NCBI GenBank assembly: GCA_051745735.1
Contig: JBNJEJ010000003.1
Location: 13,656 to 77,655 of the forward strand
Length of the DNA: 64,000 nucleotides
Reading direction: 5' to 3'
Source of the DNA: Pseudomonadota bacterium
Lineage (GTDB): Bacteria > Pseudomonadota > Gammaproteobacteria > Enterobacterales > Alteromonadaceae
The notes below the pieces were generated by a model, which saw only the letters and a program-made list of their open reading frames with translations, was not told the origin of the DNA and ran no database searches. Below are positions 23,258 to 32,987 of this stretch, piece after piece. Within the stretch, counting starts at the first letter, position 1; the number at the start of each line of letters is the position of its first letter. Position numbers and translations under genes: made by a program.

Positions 23258-23743
23258 ATGGAAAAGCACGATGAGCTATTACTTGCTCTGCGTAAAGTCA
23301 TTCGTGCTATCGACCTGCACTCCAAGCAATTAAATAAGTATTCAGGACTGACCGCTCCGCAGTTACTGATATTACGGGAAATTATTGCAGGTGATGGCAT
23401 TACCGCCAGTCAGGTAGCACAAAATATCACCTTAAGTCCGGCCACCGTATCTAACGTTATCGAACGGATGGAACTGCGCGGGTTAATCCACCGGCAACGC
23501 AGTGCAACGGATAAACGGCGTGTTTTATTATACTTAAGTGACTATGGGCAGACGTTGCTGGACAAGGCACCACAGCCACTGCAACACGATTTCATACAAA
23601 AGTTCCAGGCGCTTGAGCAATGGGAGCAGTCGTTGCTGCTGTCTTCGATGCAACGCATTGCCACCATGATGGATGCCGAAAGACTGCAGGTTTCACCCGT
23701 ACTGGAAATGGACAGTTACCACACCATGGACTCAAACTCATGA
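23258..23743 (+). CDS. MarR-family transcriptional regulator (EctR/CosR-like)
   Basis: LRKVIRAIDLHSKQL, GLTAPQL, wHTH and DKRR wing. Confidence 0.9.
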   Translation: MEKHDELLLALRKVIRAIDLHSKQLNKYSGLTAPQLLILREIIAGDGITASQVAQNITLSPATVSNVIERMELRGLIHRQRSATDKRRVLLYLSDYGQTLLDKAPQPLQHDFIQKFQALEQWEQSLLLSSMQRIATMMDAERLQVSPVLEMDSYHTMDSNS

Positions 23744-26498: not shown

Positions 26499-27629
26499 AT
26501 GCGCATATTACCAATGTTAAGCACATGCCTGCTGTTGGTTAGTAGCTTTAGCATGGCACAAAATCAGGCCGCAGAAAAGCAGGCCGATGAGCGGGTTGCA
26601 ACCCTCGCCGGCGGCTGTTTCTGGTGCGTCGAAGAAGCATTTGAACAGCTTAATGGCGTACGTGAAGTGGTTTCAGGTTATGCTGGAGGCACCGAACGTA
26701 ACCCCACGTACCAGCAAGTGTCAGGCGGTCAAACCGGCCATACCGAAGCCGTACAGGTGTATTACAATCCGAATATCATCAGCTACGCGGGCTTGTTACA
26801 AAAATTTTGGCGGATCATGGATCCAACCGATAGCGAGGGCCAGTTTGTCGACCGTGGAAAACAATACCGCCCCGAAGTTTTTGTGCACAATAGCAGACAG
26901 CGCAGAGTCGCCGAACAGTCTAAACAGTGGTTACAGGAGCACGGCCCCTTTCAGCAGCCCATTATTGTGCCGATCACCGATTTCAGCAGCTTTTACGTAG
27001 CTGAAGACTATCACCAAAATTATTACGACAAGAACCCCGTCCGGTACAAATTATACACGTACAATTCCGGGCGCTATGATTTTGTCGATAAACACTGGGG
27101 CGACACCGACGATATTGACTACCAGCAATTTACGAACAGTAACCCGGGCGGTGCCGAGCAGAGCGTGAGAAGCAACCCCTGGCAGAATTTTACCAAACCA
27201 TCTGAAGAACAGTTAAAACAGCAGCTTACCCCGTTGCAGTATGCTGTAACCCAAGAAGATGAAACGGAAGAGTCATTTAACAACCCTTACTGGGATAACA
27301 AACGGGCTGGTATTTATGTCGACATTGTCAGTGGTGAGCCGTTGTTCTCTTCGGCCGACCAATACAAATCCGGCAGTGGCTGGCCCAGCTTTACTCAGCC
27401 GATACAATCGGATGCGGTGGTAGAAAAAGAAGACAACAGTTGGTTTTATTCGCGTACCGAAATTCGCAGTCGCTACGCTGATTCCCATTTGGGGCACGTT
27501 TTTAGCGATGGCCCACAACCCACAGGACTGCGGTACTGTATGAATTCAGCAGCACTGGAATTTATTCCGCTGGATGAGATGAAAGAGCGGGGTTATCAGG
27601 CGTACATGCAATACGTCGAGGGTGATTAA
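26499..27629 (+). CDS. msrAB: Exported peptide methionine sulfoxide reductase MsrA/MsrB fusion
   Basis: Signal peptide, GGCFWC (MsrA), [14 protein letters not shown] and RYCMNS (MsrB). Confidence 0.95.
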
Positions 27630-27659
27630 CGGCCGGCTGGCAGCCGACCGTTAATCACC
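27621..27659. terminator. Long inverted repeat between convergent msrAB and the AsnB-like gene
   Basis: ggtgattaacgg-c-cggctg/cagccg-a-ccgttaatcacc near-perfect hairpin; no U-tract. Confidence 0.6.
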
Positions 27660-27674
27660 TTAAAGTCGGTACCC

Positions 27675-29690
27675 CTAAACCTGCCAGTTCAGCTCTCGCG
27701 CCCTCTGTGCAGCTTGTTTAGGCACATCGGTGGCAACAAAATGATGGTGCAACACCTGCACTCCCAGCATGTGATTGATGACCGCATCCAGTTGTACCTG
27801 TTCTTCTCCCTTAACCTGCGGGTTTTGATGCCGTTGAAAGGTTTTTACAACGGTATCGTAATCCAGTAAGCCAGCCTCTTCAACGGCTTGCTTATTGAGG
27901 AATTGCTCTGCCAATTGCTCAACGGCCTTCCATTTTTCCGGATCCGTGTGAGCGGGTGGCGCCATAAAAGCAAATTTTTCACGCTTGTACAGAGTCTCTG
28001 GTAACAAGCCCTTCATTGCTTCGCGTAACACGTACTTTTCTTTATTGCCTTTGATGCGCAAGTGCGGGGGAACTGTGAACGCATACTCTGCCAGATGATG
28101 GTCCAGAAAGGCAGGTCTTGCCTCCATCGAATTGGCCATATCGACCCGATCGCCACCCCAGGTGAGTATTTGTCCTTCGAGCATGGTTTTGATCCAGACA
28201 TACTGCGCTCGATCCAAAGGATGCCGTCCTTCCAGCATGGATTGATCCAGAGTCGCCGCAATGGCGCTGCTGGGATCGTAATGCTCGACCTGCTCACGCA
28301 TGGCTTCAGACATTAACGGTAAAGCAACGGAGCTGCATGAAAGCCATGGCTGCACACAACTGGGGGTAAAACCCACTTTTTGATTAAAGGCGTCACTGAC
28401 AAACTCTTCCCGCGCCAGCATTGCGCCTTTAAACAGTTTGTTGTTTTCTTCCAGTAACTTTTGCCATTCCAGTCGCTCAATTTCCGGCAAGTGGTCCAGC
28501 CCATGAAAAAACATATCCTTACGAAAGGCCGGGTAACCGGCAAACAACTCATCCGAACCTTCGCCCGTCATCACCACTTTATAGCCGGCTTCGTGAACTT
28601 GCTGGCTCATAAGATATTTAGCAACACCCAACGTATTGTATATGGTGCGTTCGGTATGCCAGAGAGTTTTAACAAAGTGGTCGTACAGATCATTAGCCTT
28701 TAATGCCATAATGTGATGGTCAGCATCCGTCGCTTCCGCCATTTCCCGGGCTATCGGCGTTTCATCATACTCGGCCGAATCAAAACCAATCGTAAACGCT
28801 TTAACCGATGTCTGCGTAGAGGCTGAGGCAAGACCCAAAATTGAGCAGGAGTCGATGCCACCAGACAAATAACAACCCACCGGCACATCAGCCGTCATAC
28901 GGTGCTGCACCGCCTCTAACAACTTAGCTCTGACGCCCTCGACATACTGTTCTTCGTCCACATCGTCAGCGGGATAATCCTGTTCGTTAGGGAAATTAAC
29001 ATCCCAGTACTTATGCTCGCTGATTGATAACTGACCATTGCGCCTGGCTACTTTTACCACATGGCCGGGCTGTACCTGATGAATACCCGCAAACGCCGTT
29101 GAACCGGGTACCATCACCTGAATTAACTGATGATAAACTCCCTCGGCTGAGAATTCTCGCTTAACGTCCGGGTGGGCGAACAGAACTTTTAACTCAGAAC
29201 CAAACACCACGCCGTTGTCCGTTTCGGTCCAGTAAAGAGGTTTGATACCAAATCGGTCGCGAACCAGGTACAAGCTGTCCTCAGCTTCATCAAATAAGCC
29301 AAAAGCAAACTCTCCACGCAATTCCTTCAATGCGCTTTCTAACCCATAACGCTCGAATAAGTGCAGCACGATTTCTGAATCGCTTTTGCTGTTGAAGCGG
29401 GCTCCGCGCGCTGTTAGGTCAGCCCGAATGCGCTTAAAATCATAGAACTCACCATTGTGAGTTAACATGAGCCGTTGATCGGTGGATAAAAACGGTTGCT
29501 TACCACGATTCTCGTCCAAATCGATAATCGACAGACGGGCATGGCTAAAACCAATGCCTCGCTCAGGTTTAATTTGATAACCAAAACCATCGGGACCGCG
29601 GTGATGCATAATGGCAGCCATATTAACCAGCGTCTGCGGGTCTATCGAGCGCTCGGCCTGATGATGAAAAACTCCAGCTATTCCGCACAT
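27675..29690 (-). CDS. Asparagine synthase (glutamine-hydrolysing)-family amidotransferase
   Basis: N-terminal MCGIAG (catalytic Cys2), HRGPDG, HNGEFY, RDRFGIKPL, SGGIDS PP-loop, TGEGSDELFAGY. Confidence 0.92.
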   Translation of the reverse strand: MCGIAGVFHHQAERSIDPQTLVNMAAIMHHRGPDGFGYQIKPERGIGFSHARLSIIDLDENRGKQPFLSTDQRLMLTHNGEFYDFKRIRADLTARGARFNSKSDSEIVLHLFERYGLESALKELRGEFAFGLFDEAEDSLYLVRDRFGIKPLYWTETDNGVVFGSELKVLFAHPDVKREFSAEGVYHQLIQVMVPGSTAFAGIHQVQPGHVVKVARRNGQLSISEHKYWDVNFPNEQDYPADDVDEEQYVEGVRAKLLEAVQHRMTADVPVGCYLSGGIDSCSILGLASASTQTSVKAFTIGFDSAEYDETPIAREMAEATDADHHIMALKANDLYDHFVKTLWHTERTIYNTLGVAKYLMSQQVHEAGYKVVMTGEGSDELFAGYPAFRKDMFFHGLDHLPEIERLEWQKLLEENNKLFKGAMLAREEFVSDAFNQKVGFTPSCVQPWLSCSSVALPLMSEAMREQVEHYDPSSAIAATLDQSMLEGRHPLDRAQYVWIKTMLEGQILTWGGDRVDMANSMEARPAFLDHHLAEYAFTVPPHLRIKGNKEKYVLREAMKGLLPETLYKREKFAFMAPPAHTDPEKWKAVEQLAEQFLNKQAVEEAGLLDYDTVVKTFQRHQNPQVKGEEQVQLDAVINHMLGVQVLHHHFVATDVPKQAAQRARELNWQV

Positions 29691-29708
29691 TATTGACTTT
29701 TCCTTATG

Positions 29709-30776
29709 TTAAACAACGTCGATAACGCGCTCAGCGCGCTGTACCATGCAGGTCAGTAAAGCCATTCTTAAAAAAACAGCGCCGCGTGCCTGACTAAAGT
29801 ACCAATTATGCGGCGTGTGGTCCAAATCAGTATCCAGTTCGGGGCCTCGCGCTAACGGGTGCAGAACAATGGCATCGTGTTTTAATGGCGAGGCCGCTGA
29901 CAAACTGAATGACTTACCATAAGAGCTAAAGGTTTCGCCCTCCCAGGAAATCGCATTAATATAAACAACATCCAAATCCGGCAGGCTTGCGTCTAAATCG
30001 GTAGCGGTACGAATGCTGATACCGGCCTGTTCTATCTGCTCTCGTTGCTCTGCTCCAAATAACGAGTCATCAACGGAGTCGTCGTGAATGATGACCAGCT
30101 CTTTGACTGCATCCGGAAACGTACATAAGGACTTTATAAAGCTGCGCACTGTACGCATTTTATTCGGGATACCAATAATACCGATACTGACCGCTGCACT
30201 TTTTGCCTGGTCTGTTGCAAGTTGCGGACGCCATTTAAACAGCGCATACAAATCGGCTAAAGCTTGCGTTGGATGTTCATCACAGCCGTTACCGGCATTA
30301 ATAATTGGTATTCTTAAGGTATCAATCATCTCCTCTAACGAGGTATCGTTATTATCCCGCAGTACCACACAATCACCGTAATTATTAAACATCTCGGCCA
30401 CATCGGACAAGCATTCGCCTTTGGCGATACCGGTGGTAGATCGATCGGTAATGGACATGATGTCGCCACCCAGGCGGTGCCAGGCGCTTTCGAACGACAG
30501 GCGCGTCCGGGTGCTGGGTTCATAAAATGCAGAAATTAAAATTTTGCCCTGCAAAGAAGTACTAAAGCGACTTGGATTTGCCTCGTATTTTGCTGCTAAC
30601 CGAAACAACTGCAGCATCGTATTGGCACTGAATTGGTCCGAGGATACTACGTGCTGACTGGCTAACTTAAGAAGGTAGTCGCCATCTTCCTGAATCGCCC
30701 GCAACAATGCTTTAGGGTGCGCATCACCACACACATCGGGCCGTTCCCTTTTAAACGACACATCTTTTATGTTCAT
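29709..30776 (-). CDS. ATCase/OTCase-superfamily carbamoyltransferase, aspartate-type fold with altered acceptor site
   Basis: FYEPSTRTRLSFE, AKGE, NAGNG..EHPTQ, HPLAR; lacks RxQxER. Confidence 0.88.
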   Translation of the reverse strand: MNIKDVSFKRERPDVCGDAHPKALLRAIQEDGDYLLKLASQHVVSSDQFSANTMLQLFRLAAKYEANPSRFSTSLQGKILISAFYEPSTRTRLSFESAWHRLGGDIMSITDRSTTGIAKGECLSDVAEMFNNYGDCVVLRDNNDTSLEEMIDTLRIPIINAGNGCDEHPTQALADLYALFKWRPQLATDQAKSAAVSIGIIGIPNKMRTVRSFIKSLCTFPDAVKELVIIHDDSVDDSLFGAEQREQIEQAGISIRTATDLDASLPDLDVVYINAISWEGETFSSYGKSFSLSAASPLKHDAIVLHPLARGPELDTDLDHTPHNWYFSQARGAVFLRMALLTCMVQRAERVIDVV

Positions 30777-30780
30777 AGAG

Positions 30781-30903
30781 TTACCATATCGTTTTAGAAA
30801 AATAATCTTTCACGAATAACACCACTAGCACCAGCGGCGTTAACATGGTCGCTGCCAGCGCAGTTATAATTAATATCGAAAAAATGAGTTCGGAGATTTG
30901 CAT
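30781..30903 (-). CDS. 40-aa single-TM small membrane protein (not in ORF track)
   Basis: ATG at 30903 to TAA at 30781: MQISELIFSILIITALAATMLTPLVLVVLFVKDYFSKTIW; GAGGA RBS in the upstream gene's 3' end; fills the operon gap (1-nt and 4-nt spacers). Confidence 0.8.
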   Translation of the reverse strand: MQISELIFSILIITALAATMLTPLVLVVLFVKDYFSKTIW

Positions 30904-30904
30904 C

Positions 30905-32323
30905 TCAATTGTCCTCGCTCAATTGTTGCCAATCGAATTGCTGCTGACTGCGCACCACTCCCAACCAGCAAATCAAGCCCGATACCGCACAGGCAGTTAA
31001 AGCCGCTACGTAAAAACCGATCATAAAATAACTGACTAAGCCACTTAGGGTACCGATAGCCATCCCCAGGGCGGCGTACTTACCGGTTAAACGACCAAAA
31101 TACAGTCCCAGTACAATTGGCCAAATCGTACTGGCAACGAAAGCGCCGGCAAAATTTAGCAGTCCACCTAAAGTCGCTATGCGCGGCAGACACAGCAGCC
31201 AGGTCATGATACCCAACGCCAAAATGCATAACCGGTTAAAGCGCATCAGGGTTTTATCGCTCGCCGCAGGCTTAATTTTTTTATGGAACAGATCCTGAGT
31301 CACCAGATCGGAGGTAGCAGCCAGTAATGAATCCAGGCTGGATGCCAATGCCGAAAAAATAACAATAAACACAATCACCGCACCGGCTTTTCCCAGTACC
31401 GCGGCGGCTACTGTTGGACCTATCATATCCGGACTGGGTGGAAAAATCCCCAGTTTAGGTGCCGCCAAAGCGATAAAACCGGTCACAATCGGGATCGGCA
31501 ACCACATTAAACCGGCGGTAACATAGGCTTTATAGGCAACGTTTTTCTTGAACGACAAGGCCCGTGACCACCACACATTGGAATGAAAGATTTCGCCCAG
31601 ACCAAAAAAAATATTATTAAATAAAAACATGACCGCTGCCGGAAACAGCACATCCAGCAGTTTCGGGCTACGTTGCGACAGGTTGTCATGAATACTGCTT
31701 AAACCGACGTTATCGATAAGCCAGTACGCAATAACACTCACCCCGATGATGATGATCAGGGCCTGAATAAAGTCCGTTGCAATGACTGCCCGCATGCCGC
31801 CAAATAACGTGTAGCCAACACAAATCAGCAAAATGGCCGACATACCAACGTGATAATCGAGTCCGCTCAGAGATTCCAGCAAAATACCGCCAGCCATGCC
31901 CAGGCTGATCAACCAGGCAAATGCGTAAACCAGCGAAATAACAATAAAAACCCACCAGGCGGCAGGCCCGTATCGTAACCGGATAAAGTCGCCTGAGGTG
32001 TAGCCGTTAGGGAGCAGCGCCTTGATGCGCTTTGCCATCGGCGCAAATAATAACAACCCCAGGGCGGCAAACGAGTAGCCAACCATACCCCATAAACCAA
32101 ACTGATAGGTCAACTGTGGTGCCACCAGCGTCGTATTACTGGTGACCCAGGTTGCCATGGCTGTCGCAGCGGCAAAAGCAAAGCCCACGTTACGTCCGGC
32201 CAGGGCAAAATCTTCGTGGCTTTTATTCTTCCGGCCCAGCCAGTAACCAAACAAAACCCAGGCAACACCAAAAACTGCCACAATGGTCAAACCCAACCAG
32301 CGATCCAGTGCAAATTCGGTCAT
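30905..32323 (-). CDS. Sodium:solute symporter (SSS/SLC5; DUR3/urea-transporter-like)
   Basis: About 13 TMs, EDFALAGRNVG, YTLFGGMRAVIATD.IQ, SSLDSLLAATS. Confidence 0.88.
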   Translation of the reverse strand: MTEFALDRWLGLTIVAVFGVAWVLFGYWLGRKNKSHEDFALAGRNVGFAFAAATAMATWVTSNTTLVAPQLTYQFGLWGMVGYSFAALGLLLFAPMAKRIKALLPNGYTSGDFIRLRYGPAAWWVFIVISLVYAFAWLISLGMAGGILLESLSGLDYHVGMSAILLICVGYTLFGGMRAVIATDFIQALIIIIGVSVIAYWLIDNVGLSSIHDNLSQRSPKLLDVLFPAAVMFLFNNIFFGLGEIFHSNVWWSRALSFKKNVAYKAYVTAGLMWLPIPIVTGFIALAAPKLGIFPPSPDMIGPTVAAAVLGKAGAVIVFIVIFSALASSLDSLLAATSDLVTQDLFHKKIKPAASDKTLMRFNRLCILALGIMTWLLCLPRIATLGGLLNFAGAFVASTIWPIVLGLYFGRLTGKYAALGMAIGTLSGLVSYFMIGFYVAALTACAVSGLICWLGVVRSQQQFDWQQLSEDN

Positions 32324-32835
32324 TAGCTTGCTTCCCTGCTTGTTGCCGCTTTATGCTGATGCTGTATATGCGAACGGATAATGGTGACAACTAAGGCGAC
32401 AAACATCAGCAGCCCGACAGTAAACAAGCCGAGTGCTTGCCACAACGGATAGTGCTGCACGGTTACCTTGATAACGTTGCTGGGTTGTTCAACAGGTTCG
32501 GCTGTGGCCCTTAAAAAATACGTGCCATTGCTAAAACCGCTTAAGGAGAGCTGTTGAAAATCGTTAAGTGCAGGAAATCGACGGACGTTTTCGCTAAACT
32601 TGGGATCCTGAGCAGCTTCTATGATCAAACCGGGTGAAGCACTGCTGCCATTACCGCCGCGCACCGTAACGGTTACCGTAAAGTAGCCTTCTTTTACGGT
32701 CTGCTGAGGGCCGCTGAGCTGCAATTGGCGAGCACAGGCATCCTCAGCAAGAAGCATAAAAAAGCATAGGCTCAGCAGGCTGTATAAACACTTAGCACCG
32801 ATTAAGGCTTTCCCCATGGGCCGCTTTACTCGCAT
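32323..32835 (-). CDS. Hypothetical exported protein with beta-sandwich-like domain and C-terminal TM anchor
   Basis: Signal-like N-terminus, GTYFLRA beta-strand motif, C-terminal TM; TAATG overlap with the symporter; exact start uncertain. Confidence 0.7.
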   Translation of the reverse strand: MRVKRPMGKALIGAKCLYSLLSLCFFMLLAEDACARQLQLSGPQQTVKEGYFTVTVTVRGGNGSSASPGLIIEAAQDPKFSENVRRFPALNDFQQLSLSGFSNGTYFLRATAEPVEQPSNVIKVTVQHYPLWQALGLFTVGLLMFVALVVTIIRSHIQHQHKAATSREAS

Positions 32836-32987
32836 GTAAAATAGGAAAACTCAGGCTATCAGCCCGGTATGTCGATTTCAACTTATTGACCGCCAGCTAA
32901 AAAATCAAAAACTTTTTCGCACCGGTCAACGTAATGTTTAGCAGGATCAATAGCGCTTATTAATTAACTACAGGACGCGGCCCAGAT

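Follow-up and report, generated by a model that had tools for sequence, protein, structure and literature searches.

The window, a 64,000-nucleotide stretch of contig JBNJEJ010000003.1 (assembly GCA_051745735.1) from a gammaproteobacterium assigned to the Alteromonadaceae, carries five minus-strand genes encoding a symporter with two small partners, a carbamoyltransferase, and a glutamine-dependent amidotransferase. The open reading frames (ORFs) lie at 32835-32323 (170 aa), 32323-30905 (472 aa), 30903-30781 (40 aa), 30776-29709 (355 aa), and 29690-27675 (671 aa), with a 1-nt overlap followed by gaps of 1, 4, and 18 nt, exactly as described in a first-pass annotation made from the sequence alone. 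The enzyme and transporter identities given there were borne out by Pfam: SSF (PF00474) for the symporter, OTCace_N/OTCace for the aspartate transcarbamylase (ATCase)-like protein, and GATase plus Asn_synthase for the AsnB-like protein, which has an N-terminal MCGI and thus an intact glutaminase cysteine. The five genes, in order from the first, are as follows.

32323-32835, minus strand: exported, C-terminally anchored protein, predicted FN3/Ig-like, probably a transporter accessory
30905-32323, minus strand: SSS-family symporter (PF00474), DUR3 related, predicted Na+-coupled carrier of a substituted urea
30781-30903, minus strand: 40-aa single-helix membrane peptide with one hydrophobic segment, probably a small symporter subunit
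29709-30776, minus strand: pseudo-ATCase of the marine subgroup of Barba et al. 2013, putative carbamoyltransferase of a non-aspartate amino acid
27675-29690, minus strand: AsnB-like amidotransferase that uses glutamine; its predicted target is a carboxylate other than the one on free aspartate

The genome of this window (G000) resembles those of Idiomarina, amounts to 2.09 Mb, and is 87% complete. Residue roles in ATCase are well established, covering the carbamoyl phosphate site, Arg167, and the aspartate ligands Arg229 and Gln231. The operon carbamoyltransferase keeps S88-T-R-T, K119, R140, H168, Q171, and R208 (the equivalent of Escherichia coli Arg167), and STRT, KGE, EHPTQ, and HPLARG were found in 100 of 100 loci. 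R229-V-Q231 is replaced by A275-I-S277, and HPLA stands in place of HPLP; the R-x-Q motif is lost in all 100 loci, which have AIS, AIA, SIA, or rare variants. The protein scores below all ATCase cut-offs (189.7 versus 236.95 bits), its predicted structure has the ATCase fold (pLDDT, 90.8; TM score, 0.78 to the E. coli PALA complex), and it falls outside the RxQ clade in a quick tree. A search of 50% representatives supplied 32 outside proteins for this tree, 14 of which had decayed catalytic motifs in apparently error-ridden sequences and were not used. No function for the carbamoyltransferase emerged from the ESM Atlas. A separate canonical pyrB, whose presence elsewhere in the genome the first-pass annotation had asked to see confirmed, was found at G000:C8:26244-27263 (652.7 versus a cut-off of 512; motif YQTRIQ). 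Also in agreement with that annotation, no pyrI or pyrC was recognized by eye near the operon among ORFs of at least 100 aa at 20 to 40 kb, with four flanking ORFs domain scanned. Judged by its sequence, the operon carbamoyltransferase is not PyrB.

The AsnB-like enzyme has both of its catalytic centers intact, with MCGI in 94 and the ATP motif LSGGIDS in 95 of 95 loci, a count that omits loci with short or interrupted matches. It scores below the AsnB equivalog NF006949 (284.7 versus 499) and below TIGR03104 (306 versus 570), the model for the amidotransferase of N-acetylglutaminylglutamine amide (NAGGN) synthesis. Its best PDB match is the hydroxyamidotransferase 7ylz (E value, 1e-53), with E. 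coli AsnB at 1e-38. E. coli Arg325, whose role in the AsnB synthetase site is described in the accessible part of PMC12018205, aligns to Gly355, and Gly or Ala occupies this position across the loci. To judge from the alignment, a conserved Arg348 near Gly355 could substitute for Arg325.

A second AsnB-like gene, a feature of just 2 of the 28 genus genomes, lies within G000:C50:180-3940 (L104) in the genome of the window. It encodes a NAGGN-type amidotransferase (TIGR03104, 855 versus 570) and is divergent from genes for a RimK-family ligase and an EgtC-like class II amidotransferase; no Ngg was found in the 4.2 kb read. This locus is possibly a variant amide-dipeptide system.

The best PDB matches of the symporter are plant DUR3 proteins (E value, 8e-33; next family, 8e-10), and its pocket was compared with DUR3 by hand from the alignment, using the residue list in the accessible part of PMC11840088. 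DUR3, a urea:proton symporter, is the closest solved relative, and its W93, T98, Y117, and W338 are kept in the operon protein; the first three have the largest computed shares in urea binding by DUR3 in that part of the paper. In contrast, W95, Q124, N305, and Y461 are replaced by the smaller pocket residues T, G, G, and L. The proton pair D312/E402 is replaced by S248/L333 and the Trp dyad W95/W338 by T61/W274, and these two replacements are invariant in 52 sequences. The operon symporter is also shorter and has Na2-type residues. S328 and S329 (the Ser-Ser of TM8) and D184 and Q187 (TDxxQ of TM5), which we take to form the Na2 site, are invariant in 52 sequences. Retention of the urea residues, a pocket predicted to be larger, loss of the proton pair, and the Na2-type residues together predict a Na+-driven carrier of a substituted urea, of which N-carbamoyl-L-glutamine 1-amide (NCGA) is one.

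Both small proteins accompany the symporter. A small hydrophobic ORF lies between the symporter and carbamoyltransferase genes in 95 of 97 loci, and in 52 sequences of this peptide W40 is invariant and P23, L26, and D33 are nearly so. The exported protein has hydrophobic segments at residues 11 to 29 and 135 to 153 and a homologue in 77 of 80 named loci; it had no Pfam or NCBIfam match, and its Atlas neighbor is named "fibronectin type III domain-containing" (0.94).

The pair of enzymes is a fixed feature of the loci. Among the named loci, which are the best 80 of 383 matches and thus chosen by closeness to the query, the symporter, carbamoyltransferase, and asnB-like genes occur in the same order in all 80; the nearest named relatives of the carbamoyltransferase are those of Idiomarina (80 to 92% identity). 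The asnB-like gene stands beside the carbamoyltransferase gene in 80 of the 80 named loci, two of them truncated by contig ends, and in 19 of 20 distant loci, the 20th stopping at a contig end; the co-conservation expected by the first-pass annotation is seen. It also adjoins the carbamoyltransferase gene in two further loci, L102 and L103; the latter (genome G653) holds a divergent copy with 45% identity and a YMNAIAF motif in the same symporter-enzyme-amidotransferase order. An even sample of 400 genomes of the class contained 24 with the carbamoyltransferase, G000 and the unpublished G296 among them (one genome unscored), and a phylum sample of 401 contained 3, again counting G000. The distant loci represent 20 of the 23 other carriers in the class sample; upstream, 19 of them also encode an isochorismatase-family hydrolase and an M20 carbamoylase, and 17 have the symporter. 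The three symporter-less loci also lack the exported protein and the 40-aa-type peptide, while both enzymes persist, and the module therefore divides into a synthesis pair, a transport trio, and hydrolases; enzymes without the transport trio fit a synthetic role. Family members by name include those of Ectothiorhodospira magna, E. lacustris, E. shaposhnikovii, E. marina, Ectothiorhodosinus mongolicus, Thiorhodospira sibirica, Thioalkalivibrio, and Nitrosococcus oceani. A plasmid search gave 46 records, all below 60% identity and the 20 listed at 28 to 33%, with no family member among the matches listed. In a cluster look-up of ten distant representatives, the one organism named was Actinophytocola, whose motif differs.

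The M20 ortholog is unlinked in the genome of the window (G000:C27:11469-12701; L105). It is 55 to 62% identical to the module-adjacent M20 proteins of Kangiella, Bowmanella, Ketobacter, and others, is kept by 26 of the 28 genomes in the genus, and has as its best equivalog, under cut-off, the N-carbamyl-L-glutamate amidohydrolase ErtE. No isochorismatase ortholog was found in this genome with a module-derived query. A scan of 98 flanking ORFs revealed osmolyte or MscS neighbors in 4 of the 20 distant loci: glycine/sarcosine methyltransferases-MetK-ProV downstream in L094, sucrose synthase and MscS in L084, MscS in L082, and an MPG-phosphatase family protein in L087. At L094:1474-5414, genes for GSMT, an SDMT-like protein, MetK (glycine betaine synthesis), and ProV follow the asnB-like gene in the same orientation, no more than about 50 nt away.

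These observations suggest a two-step synthesis. The pseudo-ATCase would transfer the carbamoyl group of carbamoyl phosphate to the α-amine of glutamine (or glutamate), and carbamoylation would come first because the retained R208 would hold a free α-carboxylate. The AsnB-like enzyme would then amidate the α-carboxylate with ATP and glutamine, or both carboxylates if the route started from glutamate. The DUR3-like Na+ symporter and its two small partners may recapture leaked or external solute, and the M20 carbamoylase (unlinked here), together with a cysteine amidase in other lineages, would strip both caps. On this sequence evidence we lean, with slightly better than even confidence, toward synthesis and recapture of NCGA as an amide osmolyte; that the product is some N-carbamoyl amide osmolyte appears quite probable. 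The first-pass annotation had proposed a carbamoyl-amino-acid amide osmolyte, a proposal that gains from the separate pyrB, from co-conservation, and from the E. mobilis enzyme described below, and that gains nothing from the salt proxies; the product itself is one that we infer.

NCGA has reportedly been listed as a one-organism solute since 1991. The accessible parts of PMC1224877 and PMC3857566 describe it, respectively, as a solute of Ectothiorhodospira marismortui, also known as E. mobilis, and as a minor solute found in one organism only. Three proteins named as E. mobilis belong to the carbamoyltransferase family, and the one compared is 61% identical with the same motifs. Of the gene pair that the first-pass annotation had suggested seeking in E. 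marismortui, it is the carbamoyltransferase alone that these proteins show, at the species level. T. sibirica, E. mongolicus, and E. magna are without betaine and ectoine synthesis according to the accessible part of PMC7824335, which names NCGA as a candidate solute for the first two and assigns no genes. All three have the carbamoyltransferase. We found no literature linking the operon genes to NCGA or salt in a search outside which most subscription papers lay.

Several observations weigh against NCGA or an osmolyte role. Loss of R229/Q231 would exclude aspartate only, and sequence cannot tell glutamine from asparagine, glutamate, or another acceptor. The report of NCGA from one organism is at odds with a carbamoyltransferase found in 24 of 400 class genomes and an asnB-like gene found in 28 of 28 genomes of the genus. 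Presence in Ectothiorhodospira and Thioalkalivibrio is largely kinship, and E. mobilis is therefore one consistent case rather than a correlation. The co-occurrence with salt tolerance anticipated by the first-pass annotation received no support from two weak proxies, nqrA (2 of 22 carriers versus 10 of 58 noncarriers) and ectC (1 of 22 versus 4 of 58), neither of which was enriched among 22 of the 23 other class carriers relative to 58 noncarriers picked by identifier number. Sixteen of the 20 distant loci are without an osmolyte neighbor, and the 4 of 20 has no background rate for comparison. Overall, the M20 protein matches best, and above cut-off, a subfamily that bears the name allantoate amidohydrolase, and in the accessible part of PMC4016543 the only characterized pseudo-ATCase works catabolically.

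Other readings of the operon draw on the same evidence. The same chemistry might yield another product, still an osmolyte, with asparagine, alanine, a different neutral amino acid, or an amine as the backbone of the N-carbamoyl amide; the exclusion of aspartate alone and the breadth of the module relative to the single NCGA report leave room for this. However, the NCGA producer has the enzyme, the linked carbamoylase points to N-carbamyl-glutamate through its best equivalog, and motifs near uniform across the family suggest one product, and we regard this alternative as unlikely. It is rather more doubtful that the compound, with its 4 N per 6 C, is a nitrogen store, an overflow product, or scavenged nitrogen instead of an osmoprotectant. 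Such a role would suit the lack of nqrA and ectC enrichment, the co-encoded dedicated hydrolases, and the minor share of NCGA in E. marismortui; it sits less well with the osmolyte/MscS neighbors in 4 of 20 distant loci and with the named hosts, which belong mostly to what we take to be marine, hypersaline, and soda-lake genera, the 80 named loci having been picked for closeness to the query.

Two catabolic or housekeeping readings, purine catabolism and asparagine supply, fit the operon poorly. Imported ureides could be degraded by DUR3-like uptake, phosphorolysis by the pseudo-ATCase as in ureidoglycine carbamoyltransferase, and subsequent hydrolysis, and the related Rxyl_2847 does phosphorolyze allantoate (PMC4016543, accessible part); the DUR3-like transporter and the allantoate amidohydrolase subfamily match of the M20 protein point the same way. 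Yet carbamate kinase was not found in G000 or in five complete carriers (0 of 5), allantoinase of either type was over cut-off in none of the same number of complete carriers, the enzymes occur without the transporter, and the ATP-consuming amidotransferase, the most fixed partner, is left unexplained, which makes this scheme very unlikely. Canonical AsnB was found in 0 of 28 genomes of the genus, all 28 of which have the asnB-like gene, and this at first favored plain asparagine supply, with the carbamoyltransferase as a second PyrB. The broad model TIGR01536 is passed (453.6 versus 267.1), no AsnA or GatB was found in the 87% complete G000, and one Aliidiomarina genome was without any of the three other asparagine routes. 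The TIGR01536 score is no indication of asparagine synthesis, however, because the NAGGN-type amidotransferase of G000 scores the same (456.6). Among 47 carriers, gatB occurs in 24 and canonical AsnB in a further 10 (34 of 47), and of the remaining 13, five were checked, four with AsnA and all five with asparaginyl-tRNA synthetase (AsnRS). With Arg325 replaced by Gly or Ala and a true pyrB present, we consider housekeeping highly improbable.

Were synthesis and recapture of NCGA correct, the operon would offer a candidate function for a widespread family that now carries the wrong labels pyrB and asnB, an osmolyte candidate for T. sibirica, E. mongolicus, and E. magna, in which a genome survey found none, and a two-gene expression experiment for a solute without assigned genes in the literature searched. 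A broader and more tentative proposal, which we hold at less than even confidence, is that marine and soda-lake bacteria widely use NCGA as an osmolyte, that about 1 in 20 sampled gammaproteobacterial genomes encode the two-enzyme route to it, and that it is traded via a dedicated three-part Na+/ureido-solute transporter. If true, saline waters would have in NCGA a nitrogen-rich currency (4 N per 6 C) that has been overlooked.

Three further features lie around the operon.

32853-32882, minus strand: sigma70-type promoter-like site (TTGAAA, 17 nt, extended -10 TG-n-TAGCCT), predicted operon promoter
27621-27659, no strand assigned: hairpin with an 18-bp stem between the convergent asnB-like and msrAB genes
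23258-23743, plus strand: MarR regulator (Pfam MarR) outside the operon, candidate operon regulator

The promoter-like site, just outside the span first annotated as the operon, was missed by a default promoter scan. Its pattern has one match in the window and 0 in 100 shuffles, and it precedes the first gene in 47 of 103 loci, every one of them of Idiomarina/Pseudidiomarina type, although the pattern was derived from the same loci in which it was counted. The true start of the first gene is most likely 32817 (164 aa) rather than 32835, because an ATG follows the conserved -10 box by 33 to 37 nt in 12 of 18 relatives examined, as 32817 likewise does. The operon had been described as ending at a hairpin, and an 18-bp hairpin is indeed present (about 27621-27659; -34.8 kcal/mol for a 66-nt stretch; z, -5.4; 0 of 200 shuffles equally good), overlapping the stop codon of the convergent msrAB gene. 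It has no U-run on the operon strand and is absent from the terminator scan list, which indicates that it is not a classic U-tailed terminator. Strong hairpins occur 3' of the asnB-like gene in several, not all, of 10 relatives folded.

The GC content of the operon genes (0.48 to 0.50) is that of the window (0.49). The flanks, msrAB and folK-folM-acnA (the last two presumably so named), are common to close relatives only. An exported MsrA-MsrB fusion at 26499-27629 (plus strand) runs toward the operon from the opposite strand, and its match in L009 and L010 is confined to a 75-aa piece. The MarR protein, presumably akin to the osmolyte regulators EctR/CosR, is 45% identical to the one adjoining the module in L093. 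A MarR of this kind accompanies 24 of 55 Idiomarinaceae loci, 7 of the 25 remaining named loci, and 8 of the 20 distant ones, and the protein is a candidate regulator of the operon. Four salt-lake metatranscriptome runs from one study contain the stretch as contigs; with DNA carry-over possible and no level or strand, these were not counted as expression.

Compared with PyrB, the operon enzyme shares the fold, the carbamoyl phosphate site, and Arg167; it differs in the loss of R229/Q231, in Ala at P268, in its identity of about 30%, in scores below the cut-offs, and in having no pyrI or pyrC seen nearby. By its sequence, the operon is a member of the marine pseudo-ATCase block published by Barba, Dutoit, Legrain, and Labedan in 2013 (PMC4016543), who in the accessible part of the paper describe a pseudo-ATCase whose neighbors are a Na+ symporter, a HyuC-like gene, and what they call a "putative asparaginase." The gene block has thus been in print since 2013, and we found the functional link nowhere in the literature searched: that part of the paper assigns no function to the marine subgroup, assays only a Rubrobacter enzyme of another subgroup, and does not use "osmo" in the main text. 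Shared with the subgroup as described there are the STRT, HPTQ, HPLA, and AIA/AIS/SIA motifs (STRT/HPTQ and HPLARG in 100 of 100 loci; AIS in the window and AIA in Kangiella locus L059), a Na+ symporter on one side, a genuine pyrB elsewhere, a HyuC-like carbamoylase usually adjacent, and members in Kangiella and Nitrosococcus. Two differences stand out: the paper's "putative asparaginase" is an AsnB-type synthetase here, probably the same gene under another word, and the carbamoylase, adjacent in "nearly all cases" in the paper, is unlinked here and not adjacent in 55 Idiomarinaceae loci. Table 1 of the paper labels the motif row "pseudo-ATCase 1," while the text and the Fig. 5 legend say subgroup 3, so that the numbers are apparently swapped.

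The NAGGN system, comprising AsnO (TIGR03104) and Ngg, relies on amidation by AsnO. The NAGGN compound is described in the accessible part of PMC1224877. The five operon genes include no peptide ligase, the cap would be a carbamoyl group added by a transcarbamylase and not an acetyl group, and the module has its own transporter and hydrolases. In both systems, an AsnB-like enzyme would amidate the α-carboxyl of an N-capped glutamine compound to give a neutral solute, and by this analogy the operon most likely works like the NAGGN system with a carbamoyl cap.

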